A DNA stretch of 64,000 nt from contig NW_026889778.1 of assembly GCF_033153115.1 (NCBI RefSeq), positions 5,580,001 through 5,644,000 on the forward strand. Reading direction: 5' to 3'. The position numbers and the translations under genes were made by a program. The notes beneath the pieces are model-generated. The model saw only the letters and a list, made by a program, of their open reading frames with translations. It was not told where the DNA came from and did not search any database. Position 1 is the first letter of the stretch. Every line of letters starts with the position of its first letter. This DNA comes from Saccostrea echinata. Taxonomy: Eukaryota. This document shows, piece by piece, positions 375 to 46,300 of the stretch.

Positions 375-1278
375 ATGGACTTTGAAGATTTTACTTTAGA
401 TCTCCTGGTGGATGATAAAGAAATGGACTTCTTAGAAGACGCCCCTGTCTTTGCACCTCTAAGTTCTGAGACATCAAAGAACATTGAGTTCTTTTTCTCA
501 TCTGACATGACTTGTCCTGTGGATGGATGTCCTCCAGCAGACTTTCAATACAAAGGCCAAATTTCAACGACACTGGATGGAGAAGCATCTCCCAGAGGTC
601 ATATCCTATTCATGCCCAGTAGTCAACTGCAAGGTCGCCTGCCGTAGACGGTATGATATGAAAGTTCATCTACTTCGCGTCCATGGGACCAGCAAAGGAT
701 TTGTGGAAAGTATTCTTTCCAAGAGTCAGAAAACATCAAGACCCAATGCATCTTTCATTCATCCTGGAAGTTACACATTCTACGGCAGGACCAGACCACC
801 TGTGGCTAAGGATGCTCTTCCTCCAGTGCCGTTGACTTCTACATCTGTGCCTGTGGCCTTATCCTCCTCTCCTGTGGTGCCTGATGAGGTTCCCCTTTCC
901 GTTTCTGATGTGTTGGAACCACCTACCAAGAAGACCCTCACAGTTCAGGAGTACCTCTCTCGACCAGTGTCCTCGATTCTGCGACCTCTCCATGTTTCTA
1001 CCCAGACCAGGTGCCAGGATTTCCCTCCTTTTTCTCTTCCTGACGTCCCTGAGACGCAAGAAGAAATCCTAGCTTACATTCATTGGTTAGACAGCCTTTT
1101 CAACTCTATCAATCTCAAGAGGAAAACGGCCGAGGAAAAACTTGCGTGTTTGAAGACTACTTCCTCTGAACTTCTCGTGGAAAGGGAGAAAAGACGCAAA
1201 CTGGAGGCCGAGAACCTGCGCCTGCGGAAGGAACTGGCGGACCTCAAAGCTGTTAATCTTTTGTTTCCTGAACTGTGA
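375..1278 (+). CDS. Extra retrotransposon ORF: 2x C2H2 zinc finger, Pro/Ser-rich linker, basic coiled coil (about 300 aa when the +1 frameshift at about 534 is removed)
   Basis: ORF 375..647 gives ...MTCPVDGCP and ORF 523..1278 continues QQTFNTKAKFQRHWMEKH, completing finger 1; finger 2 is CPVVNCKVACRRRYDMKVHLLRVH; C-terminus EREKRRKLEAENLRLRKELADLK has heptad leucines. Confidence 0.75.
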
Positions 1279-1613: not shown

Positions 1614-2062
1614 TGTAATGGTGGATGATTTAATTATAGTATCTATATATGTTATTAAATCTTTGTTATTTATTACAATGTATCTAGTCACGTATTAAAA
1701 TGAATAATTATTGTAATATTGTGTTGTGTAACATTATACTATTATTATATTATTATTATACTACATTTAATGTCGGGTTCGTTGCCGACTTTGCGCGTGT
1801 GTCAGGCCGTTCGGGACAACGTCTGGACGTCTGTTAACGGCCTGACCACCGTGACGTTCGCAACGGCCAGATTAGATCAGTGCTAGACTGAGACAAGCTG
1901 CGAGTAGGTATCCACCATCCCCTAGACTTGTAATATTGTTAATTGTAACTTATTTATTTATTTATTTCATTTAATAAACCTTTGTTAACCTTTAAAAATG
2001 CGTTTCTCTCTGTAAATCACTGAATCTGGATTAACATGGAAACGTACAGGTTTCCCGTTACA
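1614..2062 (+). repeat. 3' LTR (449 bp)
   Basis: TGTAA...TTACA inverted termini, preceded by PPT, AATAAA at 1973-1978, internal 11-bp inverted repeat GTCAGGCCGTT 1801-1811 / AACGGCCTGAC 1836-1846. Confidence 0.85.
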
Positions 2063-8599: not shown

Positions 8600-9175
8600 A
8601 AACCGCTTTAGTTCCAAGTCAAGTAATTGTTTGCTTAGGAACCGACTGGATTATTCAAGATACAAAAAATCCAGTACAAGATATCCACAGTTTGAACTTT
8701 GAAAGAAAAGTAAATAAGTTAAATATATTTGGGGTTTTTTTTATCATTTGGATGCATTAAATTATGCTAGCTAGATGATACAAATTTCGTGCTTTATTAA
8801 GAAATGCAATTAGTGCGTCCTAANNNNNNNNNNNNNNNNNNNNNNNNNNNNNNNNNNNNNNNNNNNNNNNNNNNNNNNNNNNNNNNNNNNNNNNNNNNNN
8901 NNNNNNNNNNNNNNNNNNNNNNNNNNNNNNNNNNNNNNNNNNNNNNNNNNNNNNNNNNNNNNNNNNNNNNNNNNNNNNNNNNNNNNNNNNNNNNNNNNNA
9001 TTTCATTTATTTAATTCATCGGCTTAATTATGAGTGTACACATATCATTTTAGTTTTCTGGACATAGAAAACTATCATTTCTTATATTCAAGGTTTTAAC
9101 ATTAATGATTATAAGAAAACTTTCATCAACTGATTTACAATATCAACAATTTACAGATTTATACCTTTAAGTGCT
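8600..9175 (+). repeat. Duplicated segment homologous to the upstream region of the B-box/NHL copies (16820-17240), spanning an assembly gap
   Basis: AACCGCTTTA..CAAGTCAAGTAATTGTTT..AGGAAC.GACTGGATTATTCAAG and TCATCGGCTT..TATCATTTT..ACAGATTTAT shared with 16820-17230. Confidence 0.7.
8824..8999. other. Assembly gap (176 N)
   Basis: Run of N. Confidence 1.
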
Positions 9176-21998: not shown

Positions 21999-23619
21999 AT
22001 GGCTACTCCAATCTCCTGGGCTCATGAAGTCATCAAATGTAATCTCTGTGATAAGGCTACCCAGCAATTCTGTAACAACTGTCAAGTAAGTTTATGCGTG
22101 AACTGCATCAATAAACATGTGGACAATTTCAACTCGCTTACTCATGAAATCGTTCCTTTCAAGAACAGAAAGAACCAGATAGTGTTTCCTGAGTGTGACT
22201 TTCAATCCGAACAGAGATGCGAAGCCCATTGCCAAAAGTGTGATGTGTCTGAGTGTATGGAGGGTGTCATCGATTCCCATAATGGACCCAAGTTGAAATA
22301 CATTCCCAAGATCTTCCTAGAAAAACGAAAGGAAATAGAGAAGGAAATCCATGAATTTGAATCCTACATTTTTCCTATGATCAAGAAGATAAAACTTTTC
22401 AAACCAACAGCCATATTTGAGGAAATGGAGCAACAGATAAAGGAGCACAGAAAATCCTGGCATGTTGAAGTAGACACCATCTTTGACAGACTTGGCACTT
22501 TGATCAAGTCCATGAAAGAAAATCATATGTCTGTCTTAAAATTACACCAGTCCAAGCTTATTAATCTGCCTCCAGATCTGATGCAAACAATCCAGCGAAA
22601 CAAAGAAATCTTAAAGTCCAACAAAGTGTCTGATATAACTAACTACAAATCCAAACTCACCGAATACAGAAACATTCATACAGACATAGATCAGGCAATT
22701 CCCTCTTTGAAAACTAACACAACCCAAGGGAGAGAACTTATTATAAAACTAGGAGAATACAAGGTTACATTGACACAGACGAAACTCTCACATCTGATAG
22801 AAGTATGCTTAGACAAATCCAGAGTTATTGCTACCATTCCTGCTGGATTTCAACCTTTATGGAGAGTTGCTTGTTTGGCAGAAGATAAAGGTTGGGTTAG
22901 CGGAGAAGACACAATCAGAAGATGTGTCGACATATACGGGTCTATTTATGATACAGTTACAATGTACTACCAAATGTCGATGTTGGTCAGATGATAGCAG
23001 AGGGACCGGACATGGAGAACTAATATATAGTGATGGTTACAATAGAACTGTGAATATCGTCAGACACGAAAGGACAGAAATAATGATCACCACACAAAAG
23101 GGCTGGCAAACAGAAGGGTTGTGTGGTACAAGATCAGGAGATGTATTGGTCAATCTGTATAATAAAGGTCGAAATAAAATCGTCCGCTATCAAGGGCAAA
23201 CAGTGAAGCTAGAAATGCATAAAGATAACAATAAAAAAGAAATCTTTAAAAATGGAAAATACATGCTGTATTTAGCCGAAAACAACAATGAAGACATTTG
23301 TGCCTCTGATCGTAATGCTGGCCTAGTGGTTGTTTTGAAAATGACGGGAAGAGTTCGATTCCGATACGACGGTACACCAGGCAGGGGAAAGAAGGCATTT
23401 GATCCTAGATATATAGTGATAGACTCCATGAGTCATATCATTGTGTCAGATTACAGCAATGACTGTCTACATATACTTGATCAAGACGGACATTTCCTGA
23501 GATGTGTGGATAATCTGGGACTAGAGAACCCCTGTGGACTGAGTATGGACAGTAAGGGGAGGCTGTGGGTAGGGGAAATAGATTCAGGAGATATTAAAGT
23601 CATACAGTACATGAAATAA
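21999..23619 (+). pseudogene. B-box/coiled-coil/NHL (RING-less TRIM-like) copy B, broken by one 7-bp insertion; 537 aa if restored
   Basis: ORF 21999..22994 has B-boxes (CNLC..FCNNCQVSLCVNCINKH..HEIV) and coiled coil; ORF 22828..23619 has NHL repeats (ENNNEDICASD, FDPRYIVIDSMSHIIVSDYSNDCLHILDQDGHFLR, PCGLSMDSKGRLWVGE); AATGTAC at 22961-22967 is absent in copies A and C. Confidence 0.85.
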
Positions 23620-25624: not shown

Positions 25625-26694
25625 CGGGGGCTGTTCGGAAATTATTGAGATATTGTGTATATTCTTCTTTCTAATGAACGTTTTTCGGTGAAAATTTGCA
25701 TATACGTTTGACAAACTCTAAGAAGTAATAAAAACAAGAAATATTTTAAAAATATTTTATTTCATCTTTTCAATGGTATATTAATGTGTCAATGGTAGGG
25801 GTACCCGGCGCAGTCACGAAATCGGATATTGAAAATATGTAACACCAACGTAAAAACTCCCAATGGACTCATAGTAAGACCGAAAATAATTCAATTTATG
25901 TATATAATTTTTCAATTTAACTTTGACTTCATTTTGTGCAAGTTTGTTAGAATTTCGATCAGAAATACGGAGATCATTAAAAAATTTACGCGCGGTATAG
26001 CAATCTGATAACGACGACAAAACGGATTTTGACGTCAAGGCGGAGCAGCGATCATACCTAAAATTTTGTGTAGCGGTATTGAGAACTCTTGTCCAGACTA
26101 AACGACCTGCTAAAACAATACCAATGCAATAAAACATGTCTACGGGTTTATTTTCTCATTCGTATATATTATTTTCTTACAAATAATTCAACCAGAGTAA
26201 AAACAAAAGCTCCGGATGACCATCAATTATTACGGACTAAATAACGTTGACCCGCGTTGCATAACTCGAAACTGCATAATGCTAAGTCAACCTGTATTTG
26301 ACATTTTGTGTATATTTTACACTGGGGTAGCAACAGCACACGTTTTATTTTTTTAATTTTTTTTAAAAAATCGATTAAGAATTATAAGAAACAGTTTGAT
26401 TTTTGAAATGTTATATGTAATGACAGAGAAAGTAGATTGAACGCTTCCTGATCATTTCAGAATGAGAATATATCAGCTGACCTGACGTTAAAATGACGTA
26501 GCGATGCTGCTCCAGGTCAATAGACATATGCTTGTTTATGATTTCACCGGAACTTATTTAATTATCCAATAAATTAGAAATTTTGTACATTTGTTTTATT
26601 TGTTCTTTAAAAAACGTTGACTAATTTTTATGAATTTATCTCAGTCCTTTGTGGAGTAAAAGTATTTGTCTCAATAATTTTCGAACAGCCCTCG
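25625..26694. mobile_element. Non-autonomous mariner-type element
   Basis: 26-bp TIR CG(G/A)GGGCTGTTCG(G/A)AAATTATTGAGA flanked by TA at both ends. Confidence 0.88.
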
Positions 26695-26758
26695 TACAAT
26701 TTGTAGGGTCTCTGTTTTTGTATTAAAATTGACAAAGGAGTACTCTGTCCACCTGATT

Positions 26759-27195
26759 ATTACATAGGAGTCACGGCATTACATAGGAGTCAAGGCATTA
26801 CATAGGAGTCACGGCATTACATAGGAGTCACAGCATAAAATAGGAGTCACAGCATTACATAGGAGTCACGGCATAAAATAGGAGTCACGGCATTACATAG
26901 GAGTCACAGCATTACATAGGAGTCACGGCATTACATAGGAGTCACGGCATTACATAGGAGTCACAGCATTACATAGGAGTCACGGCATTAAATAGGAGAC
27001 ACAGCATTACATAGGAGTCACGGCATTACATAGGAGTCACAGCATTACATAGGAGTCACGGCATTACATAGGAGTCACGGCATTACATAGGAGACACAGC
27101 ATTACATAGGAGTCACGGCATTACATAGGAGTCACGGCATTACATAGGAGTCACGGCATTACATAGGAGTCACGGCATTACATAGGAGTCACGGC
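26759..27195 (+). repeat. 19-bp minisatellite, 23 copies (ATTACATAGGAGTCACGGC)
   Basis: 437 bp = 23 x 19, head to tail, few substitutions. Confidence 0.95.
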
Positions 27196-27240
27196 AGATG
27201 TCACCGGTCAAAAAGGATGCTTACTCCTTCTGGTCATCTT

Positions 27241-27462
27241 GCCCCTGGATTGATCAGGAAATAGACTTACACGTTAAGTCACAATTTCAATCACCTGAAA
27301 GATGTTTAATACTGTGAATTAAAAGTACACATCTGCACACATCAGCACTTTGAAAATACAATATTGAATAGCATTTTTATTTCGGATTGTTTGACTTTTA
27401 AATCATTTCAGCGCTATGTACAGATTTTGATTTAAGCTTAAGATGTTTCGTGACGCTGGGGC
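27241..27462. mobile_element. Short degenerate TIR insertion inside the PLE 3' UTR
   Basis: GCCCC...GGGGC ends; splits the motif GGCACCT|GATCCCACC seen intact in other copies. Confidence 0.5.
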
Positions 27463-29844: not shown

Positions 29845-31411
29845 GCTACTCCCATCTCCTGGCCTCAGGAGGTCATCATGTGTATCTTTTGTGACAAACC
29901 CACCCAGCAATTCTGTAACAACTGTCAAGTCAGTTCATGCGTGAAAGGCATCAATCAACATGTGGGTCTACTCTCTTACTCATGAAATTGTTCCTTTCAA
30001 GAACAAAAAGAAACAGTTGGTGTTTCCTGAACGTGAATTTCGCTCCGATCAAAGAAGTGAGGCCCATTGCCAAGAGTGTGAAGTCCCTGTGTGTATGGAG
30101 TGTGTCATCGATTCCCATAATGGACACAAGTTGAAATACATACCCAACCCAAGAAAGGACATAGAAAAGGAAATCCATGAATTTGAATCCTTCATTACTC
30201 TTATGTTTAAGATAAAGCTTTCCAAACCAACAGCCATATTTGAGGAGATAGCAAACGAGATACAGGACCACATAAAATCCTGGCACGTTGAAGTAGACAC
30301 CATCTTTGACAGAAGAGAATCATCTGTCTGTCTCAAATTACACCAGACCAAGCTAATTAAACTGACTCCAGATCTGATCGAAAAAATTCAGCGAAACAAA
30401 GAAATCTTAAAGTCCAACAAAGTGTCTGATATAACTAACTACAAATCCAAACTCACTGAATACAGAAACATTCATGCAGACATAGATCAGACAATACCCT
30501 CTTTAAAAATTAACTCAACCCATGGAAAAGAACTTATTATAAAACTAGGAGAATACAAGGTTACATTGACACAAACGACGCTTTCACGTCTGATAGAACT
30601 GTCATTGGACAAACCCAGAGTTATTGCCACCATTCCGACTGGATTTCAAACTTTGTGGAAAGTTCCTTGTATGGTACCGGGTAAAGCTTGGGTTAGCGGA
30701 GAAGACACAATCAGAAGATATGTCGACATACACGGATCTTTTTATGATACAGTTTCTACCAAATGTCGATGTTGGCCAGATGATATCAGAGTGCTCGAAC
30801 ATGGAGAACCAATATATAGTGATGATAACAATTAATGGAACTGTGAATATCGTCAGACACGGGAGGACAGAAATAATGATCAACACACAAAAGGGCTAGC
30901 AATCAGAAGGGCTGTGTGGTACAAGATCAGGAGATGTATTCGTCAGTCTGTATAATGAAGGCCGAAATAAAATCGTCCGCTATCAAGGGCAAACAGTGAG
31001 GCTAGAAATATATAAAGATAACAATAAAAAAGAAATCTTTAAAAATGGTAAATATATGCTATATTTGGCCGAAAACAACAATGAAGACATTTGTGTATCT
31101 GATCGAAATGCTGGCCTAGTGGTTGTTTTGGATATGAGGGAAAGGGTTCGATTCCGATACGACGGTTCACCAGGCGCAGAGGGAAGAAGATATTTGATCC
31201 TAGATATATACTGACAGATCCCATAACTCATCATTGTGTCAGATACAGCAATGACTGTCTACATATATTTGATCAAGACGGACATTTCCTGAGATGTGTG
31301 GATGATCTGGGACTAGAGAACCCCTGTGGACTGAGAATGGACAGTGAGGACAGGCTGTGTGTAGGGGAAATAGATTCAGGAGATATTAAAGTCATACAGT
31401 ACATGAAGTGA
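29845..31411 (+). pseudogene. B-box/coiled-coil/NHL copy C (pseudogene)
   Basis: Colinear with copy B; start codon lost, deletions, frameshift near 30830, TGG changed to TAG at 30897-30899, further indels in the NHL region. Confidence 0.85.
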
Positions 31412-43300: not shown

Positions 43301-46300
43301 ACTAAGTGCATAGTTATGATGAGCATGGATGCTTTATCCAAAATGGCTCCTAGGTTATGATGGGACTCTATTGATAATAAAGTGAAAATGCATTACTTTT
43401 TTTGTAAATCTTCTCTGCTTCTGGGCATCTAGGAGGCAAACAGAGTACAAAATTGTAATGAGTAAGGGTGTTTTACCAGATTTGTAAAATTCTTGACCAA
43501 TGTTTTGGTGCAGGGCAATGCTGTATTGATCTTGTAGGGAAATATGAACTCCACTGAGAGAAATAAATCCCCTTTACTATTGACCTTTGATAATTAATCA
43601 CCATAACTACTGAATTTGATAGATCAATTGGATTAAAGATTTATACAGGGGCTTTTAATATGTAACACATACCACAATCATAGTTTTCAATGGCTTAGTA
43701 GACTAGATAAATAAAAATGAGACAAAAATTATTATATTTTTAAAAAATACCTTATCTTAGTACTACACTAAATATTTTTCAAAGACCAAGTGAGGCCAAT
43801 ATGAGAGAAAGTGATAAATATACTACATGATCTCAAGCACTGTTGCAATGCCTAGTTTGCATGGTGATTGTGACAAATGGGAGTGTATTAGTACTGGCAA
43901 GTACAGGCAAATAAATTGATCTACTTTATGATTTGTTACAGAGTAGTACATTAAGTATTTTGTGCATCCCTGACCATCCTATTCTCTTGCATTTGGGCAG
44001 CATATCTTCACTTATACAGTTACTTTGTTTTATTTTATACTTCTATGGATCCTTTGTTGTTTTATACTCAAGTGACTGTTAAGGCCCTTTGATTCCAATT
44101 CCTGCAGTCAAAAACAGGGCCACTGTCAACATCACAAAACCTTGCACTGAAGCAGAGGACATTTATTGGTCTTTACCCTTTACATTTTTAAGTCCCTCCA
44201 CAACTATGACATGGGATAAAGAATCACAGGGCAGAAATTTTGACAAATATCTATTTTCAGTTTCTATTAAATGTGCTACTCTTTTAGAATTTTAAAGTTG
44301 ATGCTGCAAGATGCCTAAAGATTTTGAGTGTCAGTTTTTTTAAGAAGGCTCTGACTTACATTATAGAAGAGAGACTCTTTGGGGTGTTTTCCGTACTGGC
44401 CATATATCTTCTCCTGAAGGATTCCCATTCCTGCAGTCAAGAACAGGGCCACTGTCAACATCACAAGACCTGTCAACGATAAAAAAACAGGGCCACTGTC
44501 AACATCACAAAACCTGTCAACAATAAATAAACAGGACCACTGTCAATATCACAAGACGTCAATGAAAAATATACAGGACCACTGTCAATGTCAAAAGACC
44601 TATCAACAATAAATAAACAGGGCTACTGTCAACATCACAAGACATGTCAATGAAAAATATACAGGACCACTGTCAACATCAAAACACCTGTCAACAATAT
44701 ATAAACAGGATCACTGTCAACATCACAAGACTTGTCAACAAAAAATAAACAGGGTCACTGTCAACATCACAAGACCTGTCAATGATAAATAAACAAGGCC
44801 ACTGTCAACATCAAATGATCTGTCAACGATAAATAAACAGGTACACTGTCAACATCACAAGAACTGTCAATGAAAAATAAACAGGGCCACAGTCAACATC
44901 ACAAAACCTAGACTGTCAACAATAAATAAACAGGGCCACTGTCAACATTACAAGACCTGTCAACGATAAATAAACAGGACCACTGTCAACATTACAAGAC
45001 CTGTCAATGATAAATGAACAGGGCCACTGTCAACATTACAAGACCTGTCAATGATAAATGAACAGGGCCACTGTCAACATTACAAGACCTGTCAGAGATA
45101 AATGAACAGGACTACTGTCAACATCAAATGATCTGTCAAAGATAAATAAACAAGGCCACTGACAACATCACAAGACATGTCTATGATCAAGTTAAAAGTC
45201 ACCAAGTAACAAGTACCGGTACCTAGACTTAAGATTAATGTCTGAAAGGTAAATATATGTACAATACACATGCAAGAATGCAGAATTCTTAGAAAGCTAT
45301 GTTGACATTCAAACTACAGTCAAGCCTTGTTAATCTGGATGCTGTGCAAATTGTCTGGATTAATGAAGTGTGTGGAACTGTGGATTATTGGGGGAAAAAA
45401 ATTAGTTTTGTGGAATCATCAATGCTCATGGTGGACCAATGTTCATGGATTTTGTGGGTCACCCTTATCCACAAATTTACATCCCCATGAACCATTATTT
45501 TGTTAACACATTTATTCATTGAATCTTCTGTATATACAAGTTACCCATGAACTTGCGTCCCCACAAGCCAATAAAATGTTGCTTGCCCACGAATATTGAC
45601 ACCCACAAATTAAAATGATTCCATAGTATCTAAATATAAATTGTTCCCCCCAAATACCGTCTGGAGTATAAAGCATCAAGATTACTGGAATCCAGATTAA
45701 CAAAGCTCCACTGTACTACTTTGAAAGAATCTTATTTCATAATTCACCTTGAAGAAGATTTGCATTTTTATTTAAATTTTGAATTGCATGCCTGAATAAA
45801 AGCAGAATTTTTAGAGTGGTCTTAAAAGGCCATAACTTGAAACCGTGCCTTTCTTTGACAAATGATTTTTGAGAGAGATTTGAAACATCACTAATACTTT
45901 TACAATTTCTCTCTCTCCATAGAAGACAGTTAACACAAAAAAGTTCATAAACATTTATTTCATAATGAAGTAAACAACTAAAAATGATAAATAAAGTATT
46001 TCAGCTTCTAGTTCAGAGAAGACTAATCTGCACCTTACTTATAGTCCATAACATCAGATCCTTACCTAGAGTCCACAACACCAGATCATTTACCTAGAGT
46101 CCATAACATCAGATCCTTTACCTAGAGTCCACAACACCAGATCATTTCCTAAAGTCCACAATATCAAATCCCTACATAGAGTCCACAGAGCCATATACTA
46201 ACATAAAGACCATAACACCAGATCCTTAGCTACAGTCTTTCCCCAGAGTCCACAATATCAGATCCTTACCTAGAGTCCACAACATCAGATCCTTACCTAG

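Follow-up and report, generated by a model that had tools for sequence, protein, structure and literature searches.

The element and its third gene

The DNA analysed here (the window) is a stretch of 64,000 nt from Saccostrea echinata (contig NW_026889778.1, positions 5,580,001 to 5,644,000, forward strand). Its positions 1-2062 belong to a full-length Gypsy element (L012:1546-9762, about 8.2 kb) and form the 3' end of it, the 5' part lying upstream of the window. The element codes for gag and then for pol (a frame of 1285 aa in L012), in which Pfam places protease, RT, RNase H and integrase in the order typical of Ty3/Gypsy. The structural features of that group are also present: paired TG..CA LTRs, a primer-binding site (presumably for tRNA-Pro), a polypurine tract (PPT) and a target duplication. 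The 5' and 3' LTRs, of 449 nt each, are one substitution apart and the target duplication is 4 nt long; the element is young. A weak dUTPase-like match lies between protease and RT (pol residues 167-245, L012:4130-7987, E 0.027). Between pol and the 3' LTR is a third gene, ORF3. The features of the region are:

3-287, + strand: 3' end of pol, C-terminal domain of integrase p58 (PF22938, E 1.6e-12); stop codon at 285-287
302-321, + strand: PPT-like purine tract right behind the pol stop; among 13 spacers scanned, found in the A/B spacer only
333-340, + strand: TATA-like word, 43 nt ahead of the ATG; its distance is not fixed in other families
350-373, + strand: splice acceptor, a T-rich tract with AG at 372-373, one base ahead of the ATG at 375; used in RNA-like contigs of two of four runs
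375-1278, + strand: ORF3, 301 aa in open sister copies; the window copy is frameshifted near 540
375-506, + strand: acidic N-terminus rich in aromatic residues and leucine (residues 1-44), predicted to be an activation domain; a recombination tract makes it identical in families A and B
507-792, + strand: two C2H2 fingers, a helix and an N-x-x-F/Y-x-D-P-G strand, predicted to form one compact domain (pLDDT 94.9); reading residues of finger 2 are R92/D95/V98
793-1056, + strand: Pro/Ser/Thr linker of low model confidence; its basic K/R-K-x-L-T/S-x-Q-E-Y word is a predicted nuclear localisation signal
1057-1263, + strand: 69-residue helix (residues 229-297) with heptad leucines 277/284/291, predicted coiled coil
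1601-1613, + strand: PPT
1614-2062, + strand: 3' LTR, 449 nt; CpG observed/expected 1.44 against 0.62 in the rest of the window
1801-1846, + strand: GC-rich inverted repeat of 11 bp within the LTR (family B: 9 bp); no equally good repeat in 30 shuffles, and a fold z of -3.4 over 1790-1860
1905-1913, + strand: predicted LTR splice donor (GT at 1908-1909), expected to work from the 5' LTR; its position matches that of the family-B donor with RNA support
1973-1998, + strand: AATAAA at 1973-1978 and poly(A) site at 1998
2063-2066, + strand: 4-nt target-site duplication

The tract at 302-321 may be either a central PPT or a remnant left by the capture of a cassette, and the LTR inverted repeat may be an RNA hairpin or dimer site. 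The original prediction had placed the integrase stop, the T-rich tract with its AG, the PPT and the 3' LTR where we find them. It had also read 375-1278 as a single ORF, which is wrong for the window: the frame is split over 372-647 and 511-1278, and this copy is 2 nt shorter near 540 than its sisters L013 and L014. Both of these have a natural open frame of 301 aa; the third young sister, L015, is open but reads through the usual stop. All three runs that cover the spot show the sister length, so the break is either private to the window copy or an assembly error. The frameshift is one of several things that the original prediction missed, the others being the LTR-borne donor, the clade-wide spread of ORF3, cassette swapping and the spreading finger-less copies described below.

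A DNA search of the same genome gave 11 matches, four of them at ≥99%. Each of these four young copies is broken somewhere, in gag, pol, ORF3 or an LTR. There are also about nine apparent solo LTRs at other sites, and L140, L155 and L158 (C20) are a rearranged piece of family A with LTR segments in both orientations. Elsewhere in the window are three open frames with a B-box (TRIM-like; 11573-12505 on the minus strand, 21984-23616 and 29945-30832 on the plus strand), two of which are part of a duplication spaced 7.8 kb, as well as tandem arrays at 26683-27290 (19 nt), 44468-45274 (44 nt) and 46026-47201 (27 nt) and a stretch of Ns at 8824-8999.

Make-up of the ORF3 protein

When the open L013 protein is used, most of the domain plan first proposed stands: an acidic start (13 D/E and 2 K/R in residues 1-44), two C2H2 fingers, a Pro/Ser/Thr-rich linker and a long C-terminal helix. 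The helix had been called basic, but it is of mixed charge (13 D/E, 14 K/R). The labels of activation domain and nuclear localisation signal follow commonly known patterns and are not computed predictions. AlphaFold2, run on the L013 protein with a 100-row alignment, agrees with this plan (mean pLDDT 80), giving a confident domain at about residues 37-140 and the helix at 229-297; modelled alone, the two-finger domain reaches a pLDDT of 94.9. As expected of C2H2 fingers, the model has the beta-beta-alpha fold and all eight Cys/His ligands are retained in 86-92 of 92 rows; in the helix and strand that follow them the N is found in 69 and the P in 74 of 83 rows. Pfam PF00096 matches ORF3 at E 0.0013 only, below the family cut-off.

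As the original prediction held, ORF3 is not an Env. The L013 protein has no hydrophobic segment (the top 19-residue Kyte-Doolittle mean is 0.98), Pfam finds no env family in it, and the signal peptide, fusion domain and TM anchor of an Errantivirus-type env are absent. The accompanying statement that it has no furin-type word does not hold, since R-x-K-R occurs at residues 271-274, inside the helix; this word is irrelevant because signal peptide and TM segment are absent.

Among solved structures the top sequence match is to CTCF fingers 6-7 (E 3e-10), with TFIIIA among the other matches, and the top folds for the two-finger domain are DNA-bound Tramtrack and CTCF (rmsd 1.7-2.7 Å over about 60 residues). 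These fold matches are weak, with none at E ≤ 0.001 in Foldseek and a best Z of 5.2. No chain among those listed spans the whole 109-residue domain, which is not evidence of a new fold. Searches with the full model gave generic coiled coils only (Z up to 6.6), the viral library gave nothing at E ≤ 0.001, and the ESM Atlas gave only generic zinc-finger clusters. In finger 2, R92/D95/V98 align with the helix of CTCF ZF7 (Asp451, Val454). According to a CTCF study, Asp451 reads an unmodified cytosine and Val454 contacts the opposite strand (PMC10484683).

Distribution and selection

A protein search of the same genome with ORF3 gave 53 matches. At 14 of 20 more distant loci a same-strand pol lies upstream of the ORF3 homologue; two others are a duplicated decayed fragment by a LINE and the rest are partial or rearranged. 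The idea of a LINE-borne ORF3 (L066, L070) was dropped, the two loci being one duplicated stretch that contains the degraded remnant of a family-G element, its PPT and the start of its LTR included.

An integrase tree was built from 60 of 136 integrase matches, picked across the identity range, and has 69 rows after removal of 10 near-duplicates. All ORF3s of the D-P-G type fall in one clade of 39 rows (SH-aLRT 100). As the original prediction required, other members have the gene and it is no separate insertion: 32 of the 39 have a homologue, always in the same slot between pol and the 3' LTR, and the pols of lineages sharing this slot are only 47-77% alike. Among the other seven copies, five carry a shared finger-less replacement (about 200 nt), another carries a different cassette in decayed form, and in the last one homology ends with the integrase. 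The long forms with a coiled coil (families A/B, C/E and D) make up a clade in both the integrase tree (97) and the ORF3 tree (100/99). Short forms, 150-200 aa in length, still have the finger domain behind an acidic start.

Among 1.84 billion representatives searched with a profile, 839 were hit at E ≤ 0.001. The named relatives come from Ostrea, Crassostrea/Magallana, Mytilus (five proteins on five scaffolds), Argopecten and Pecten, the nearest being oyster proteins. In Pecten, one gene model fuses RT, RNase H and integrase to the ORF3 homologue. Bivalve gene sets list these ORF3s as host 'C2H2-type' or uncharacterised proteins.

It is of note that 30 of the top 147 new matches are large proteins with 3-21 tandem copies of the two-finger D-P-G domain (P0017-P0020, P0022, P0023, P0025 and P0041 among them); two are adjacent Sinanodonta genes. 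They share no common set of reading residues, and two end in a P-loop-like word that we take to resemble that of N4BP2-type kinases. It is possible that such proteins are a source or a domesticated product of the ORF3 domain. With P0046 as query, no host multi-repeat gene was found in the S. echinata genome, all 17 matches (at least 17 exist) being element ORF3s.

Many Gypsy lineages outside the clade also have a third ORF. Of 13 that were scanned, ten match C2H2 models (mostly below Pfam cut-offs), two have a KCTD-type BTB domain above the cut-off and one matches nothing. The BTB-type third ORFs (L120; L123:2874-3950, minus strand; L126:1446-2027; Pfam BTB_2, E about 1e-15) occur with or without an N-terminal finger. 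A second large clade (L107-L111, L116-L119, L121, L122, L124, L125 and L136) has ORF3s of 160-280 aa that start with M-P/V/A-x-T-K and contain C2HC and C2H2 fingers and acidic tracts. L114 and L129 group separately, in a further clade with finger ORFs of 560-625 aa.

Selection was estimated from natural copies by pairwise Nei-Gojobori dN/dS. Outside the tract common to families A and B, dN/dS of A against B is 0.19 (pol control, 0.11); by parts it is 0.11 for the C-terminus and 0.70 for the linker, and the fingers are saturated at synonymous sites, with a pN of 0.27. The H88/H103 pair gives 0.07 and copies within family D 0.17. Very young pairs, which have few changes, range from 0 to 0.64, with within-family values of 0.4-0.64. 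Between diverged pairs, then, ORF3 is under purifying selection (dN/dS 0.07-0.19) and does not evolve neutrally. This, with the fixed slot and the co-adapted splice signals, makes it extremely improbable that ORF3 is a passive fragment of a captured host gene or a nested insertion, although the large, non-element-like proteins with 3-21 domain copies (30 of 147 top new matches) and the broken window copy fit that origin; dN/dS already largely refutes it.

Splicing and expression

The expression data are assembled contigs from four runs of one study, representing at most two samples, and the nature of the molecules as RNA is assumed, not on record; contig depth cannot rank genes. Contigs of two runs, X1 and X3, begin exactly at the predicted acceptor, which supports the expected splicing at 373/374. 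The sequence joined upstream in the X3 contig corresponds to the family-B LTR as far as an AG|GTAATA donor, which provides the junction from the 5' LTR to 374 that had been called for, in family B and as one contig plus a motif match. Past the tract common to A and B, the X3 exon is A-type for about 50 nt, and the contig is likely to come from a recombinant copy. A third run, X2, shows poly(A) at window position 1998, 20 nt past the AATAAA, and also an unspliced piece across the acceptor.

The X1 contig is the deepest but was rejected as evidence that the LTR drives expression. What lies upstream in it is a host coding exon, out of frame with ORF3, that ends in AG|GTAAAT on another contig (L072:1501-1530, C9, minus strand), and no element lies within 40 kb of this exon in the assembly. 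The fusion is likely to reflect an intronic insertion missing from the assembly, which truncates the host transcript.

The donor of family A itself was not seen in any junction among the contigs of the four runs. A donor-like GT lies 155 (A), 158 (B), 162 (C) and 180 nt (D) from the LTR end, and despite this similar position the A and B LTRs align in short stretches only. In both D copies the ORF3 exon starts at an in-frame TAG acceptor and the conserved acidic motif precedes any ATG; the start codon of this family is within the LTR, at a site ATG|GTAATT that is in phase with the ORF3 exon. Nine of 21 families have an acceptor no more than 25 nt ahead of the ATG, against 10.7% of control positions (binomial P 1.7e-4, with families that are not independent). 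An internal TATA promoter at 333-340 was considered and set aside, for the word has no fixed position over 13 spacers and the RNA contigs join upstream exons at the acceptor; a minor start there is possible.

Cassette swapping and finger-less copies

Members of family G are 96-99.5% identical in integrase and 93-97% in LTR DNA, yet they carry four types of ORF3 that are only 43-55% identical as proteins and saturated at synonymous sites. Identity stops about 30 codons into ORF3 and returns past its stop. Of 30 loci, 27 matched one or other of the four cassettes, and three types are multi-copy. Family I shows the same pattern for I91 and I92. Families A and B share a tract of 95-100% identity from mid-integrase to codon 53, just inside finger 1, as against 60-80% in the flanking sequence; unlike in family G, their LTRs differ as well. 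Template switching between co-packaged RNAs could yield such chimeras neutrally. That said, in several families the breakpoints sit tightly around the finger module, which suggests that the module is under selection. The swapping of such divergent finger cassettes on a single backbone hints at conflict, with a host factor or among the elements themselves, without proving it. Four diverged putative regulators on one LTR make family G a natural experiment.

The five finger-less copies belong to family I and have one common replacement over two LTR types; two of them have pol frames of more than 1300 aa. Because finger-less copies with long open pols spread, the finger domain is dispensable in cis.

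What does ORF3 do?

The original prediction was of a transcription-factor-like regulator. The conserved, non-Env third gene is there, and in sequence and predicted fold it is compatible with a zinc-finger factor that binds DNA; a shared site in the LTRs was not found. We give about even chances to ORF3 being a DNA-binding activator of the element's own LTR. Transcription would start in the 5' LTR, and the transcript would be spliced over gag-pol from the donor 155-180 nt before the LTR end and finish at the poly(A) site of the 3' LTR. The protein would enter the nucleus via the basic linker and dimerise via the long helix. Finger 2 would recognise a site that contains unmethylated CpG, for which the CpG-rich core of the LTR is the most plausible place. 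The acidic N-terminus would recruit coactivators, so raising or protecting transcription of the element. Because such a protein would act in trans, the broken window copy and the finger-less copies could be served by others.

The reading residues and the LTRs bear on this proposal. Finger 2 has R/K-x-x-D in 24 of 24 long-type rows. CpG observed/expected is 0.99-1.44 in the LTRs of the long-type (R-x-x-D) group and 0.37-0.81 in those of the short type, with 0.62 in flanking DNA; this link sets one clade against the rest, a single independent contrast in which four short-type LTR ends are approximate. The short-type family I92 combines K-x-x-D with a CpG-poor LTR. A binding word common to the LTRs of A, C and D was sought and rejected, no CpG-containing or other word of 5, 6 or 7 nt exceeding shuffles. 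Very different cassettes on one G LTR are also not what a tight pairing of activator and site predicts. In three parsed family-G cassettes on one LTR the finger-2 residues stay R/K-Q-R.

Another reading, which we consider rather unlikely, is that ORF3 is a post-transcriptional regulator like CERV, Rev or Tat that binds element RNA, for instance the LTR hairpin, and favours the export of unspliced genomic RNA or its synthesis at full length. Where splicing from the LTR to ORF3 is strong, unspliced RNA must still be exported, and CERV of Cer1, a spliced nuclear accessory protein with a zipper and cysteines, does this (PMC10309623). Furthermore, the A and B LTRs retain a hairpin upstream of the donor, TFIIIA, which binds RNA as well as DNA, is among the sequence matches, and two of the host multi-domain proteins end in the P-loop-like word. 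Against this, the base-reading residues of finger 2 are invariant, and CERV, which uses exons of gag, is organised into different domains. No CERV- or Rev-type match came from the Pfam, PDB sequence or fold searches (CERV itself was not compared directly). A universal TAR-like hairpin was also rejected: the inverted-repeat test is significant in A and B, borderline in D (1 of 30 shuffles) and not significant in C, G and H, in whose LTRs no comparable repeat stands out, and the family-B fold itself is not significant (z -1.36).

We give still less credence to a self-limiting repressor or inter-element weapon that restrains the copy number of related LTRs and whose cassettes are kept by frequency-dependent escape. 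The four cassettes on one G backbone, three of them multi-copy, the spread of finger-less copies and the BTB domains in the same slot of related lineages would all fit. The conserved acidic and aromatic N-terminus, however, fits activation better, and the finger-2 residues are unchanged among G cassettes. An integration tether or chromatin-targeting factor, steering integrase to CpG sites or shielding new insertions, is improbable. It would account for a DNA-binding domain joined to a long helix and for the concordance of ORF3 and integrase trees at clade level, but cassettes swap freely on integrases that are 96-100% identical and the insertion flanks are AT-rich, with no common word.

The activator reading can be extended, more tentatively. 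Marine-invertebrate Gypsy lineages may be 'complex' retrotransposons that supply their own C2H2 transcription factor, translated from an RNA spliced from the LTR. In the present subgroup this factor would recognise unmethylated CpG, the LTR having co-evolved as a CpG island, and conflict with the host would keep the finger module a hypervariable and exchangeable locus, the mirror image of host zinc-finger repressors of transposons. LTR retrotransposons without env are usually viewed as gag-pol elements under host transcription factors. A lineage with a zinc-finger regulator of its own would allow a direct test of how elements stay expressed under DNA methylation and piRNA control in bivalves.

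Comparison with known systems

The ORF3s of bdelloid rotifer LTR retrotransposons (PMC5408684) are likewise sense third ORFs in the env slot of Gypsy-type elements, usually spliced, with modular exchange of types; they differ in being GDSL esterases, DEDDy exonucleases and TM or fusion proteins, and the word 'finger' is absent from the main text. CERV of Caenorhabditis elegans Cer1 (PMC10309623) is also a spliced nuclear Ty3/Gypsy accessory protein with a leucine zipper, a nuclear localisation signal and a cysteine motif. It has exons in common with gag, H, M and G domains, a C4-type motif and a role in RNA export, whereas ORF3 follows pol and has tandem C2H2 fingers. As a functional model, foamy virus Tas/Bel1 (PMC517496) is the product of a small 3' accessory gene and a nuclear DNA-binding promoter activator of the acidic class; it belongs to env-bearing retroviruses, acts with an internal promoter and has its activation domain at the C-terminus, and we claim no homology.

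Additional ORFs of plant and fungal elements (Grande gene23, RIRE2, Retand, PvRetro13, Boty; PMC7264820) are conserved extra genes between pol and the 3' LTR, some of them nuclear and with a proposed regulatory role, but they are mostly antisense and 'zinc' is absent from the main text of the review. CTCF fingers 6-7 and Tramtrack (PDB 8sss, 5t00, 2drp; PMC10484683) share the two-finger geometry, the long linker and R/D/V in finger 2; the likeness is confined to about 60 residues, and ORF3 adds the helix and D-P-G strand and is no CTCF orthologue. The element is a mollusc Gypsy of the kind covered by a survey of mollusc Gypsy clades (C-clade, MolGy1-16; PMC6238403), where classification was by RT/RNase H and the term ORF is absent from the main text.

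In the literature searched, covered in part (PMC12440569, PMC13524379, PMC8220671, PMC6238403, PMC5408684, PMC7264820 and PMC10886601 included), animal Gypsy elements are not described as having a sense C2H2 ORF3 spliced from the LTR; this search did not extend to most subscription papers, to supplements or to Repbase and Dfam, and the supplements of PMC6238403 and PMC13524379 may contain such elements. Non-env third ORFs were already known. What our analysis establishes for the bivalve gene is its position, its conservation across the clade, purifying selection, use of its acceptor in RNA-like contigs and one LTR-donor junction, and what is new here is that family G carries four versions of ORF3 on one near-identical pol/LTR backbone. 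If the regulator reading is right, these elements are a widespread animal lineage that makes a zinc-finger regulator for itself, in parallel to the complex retroviruses.
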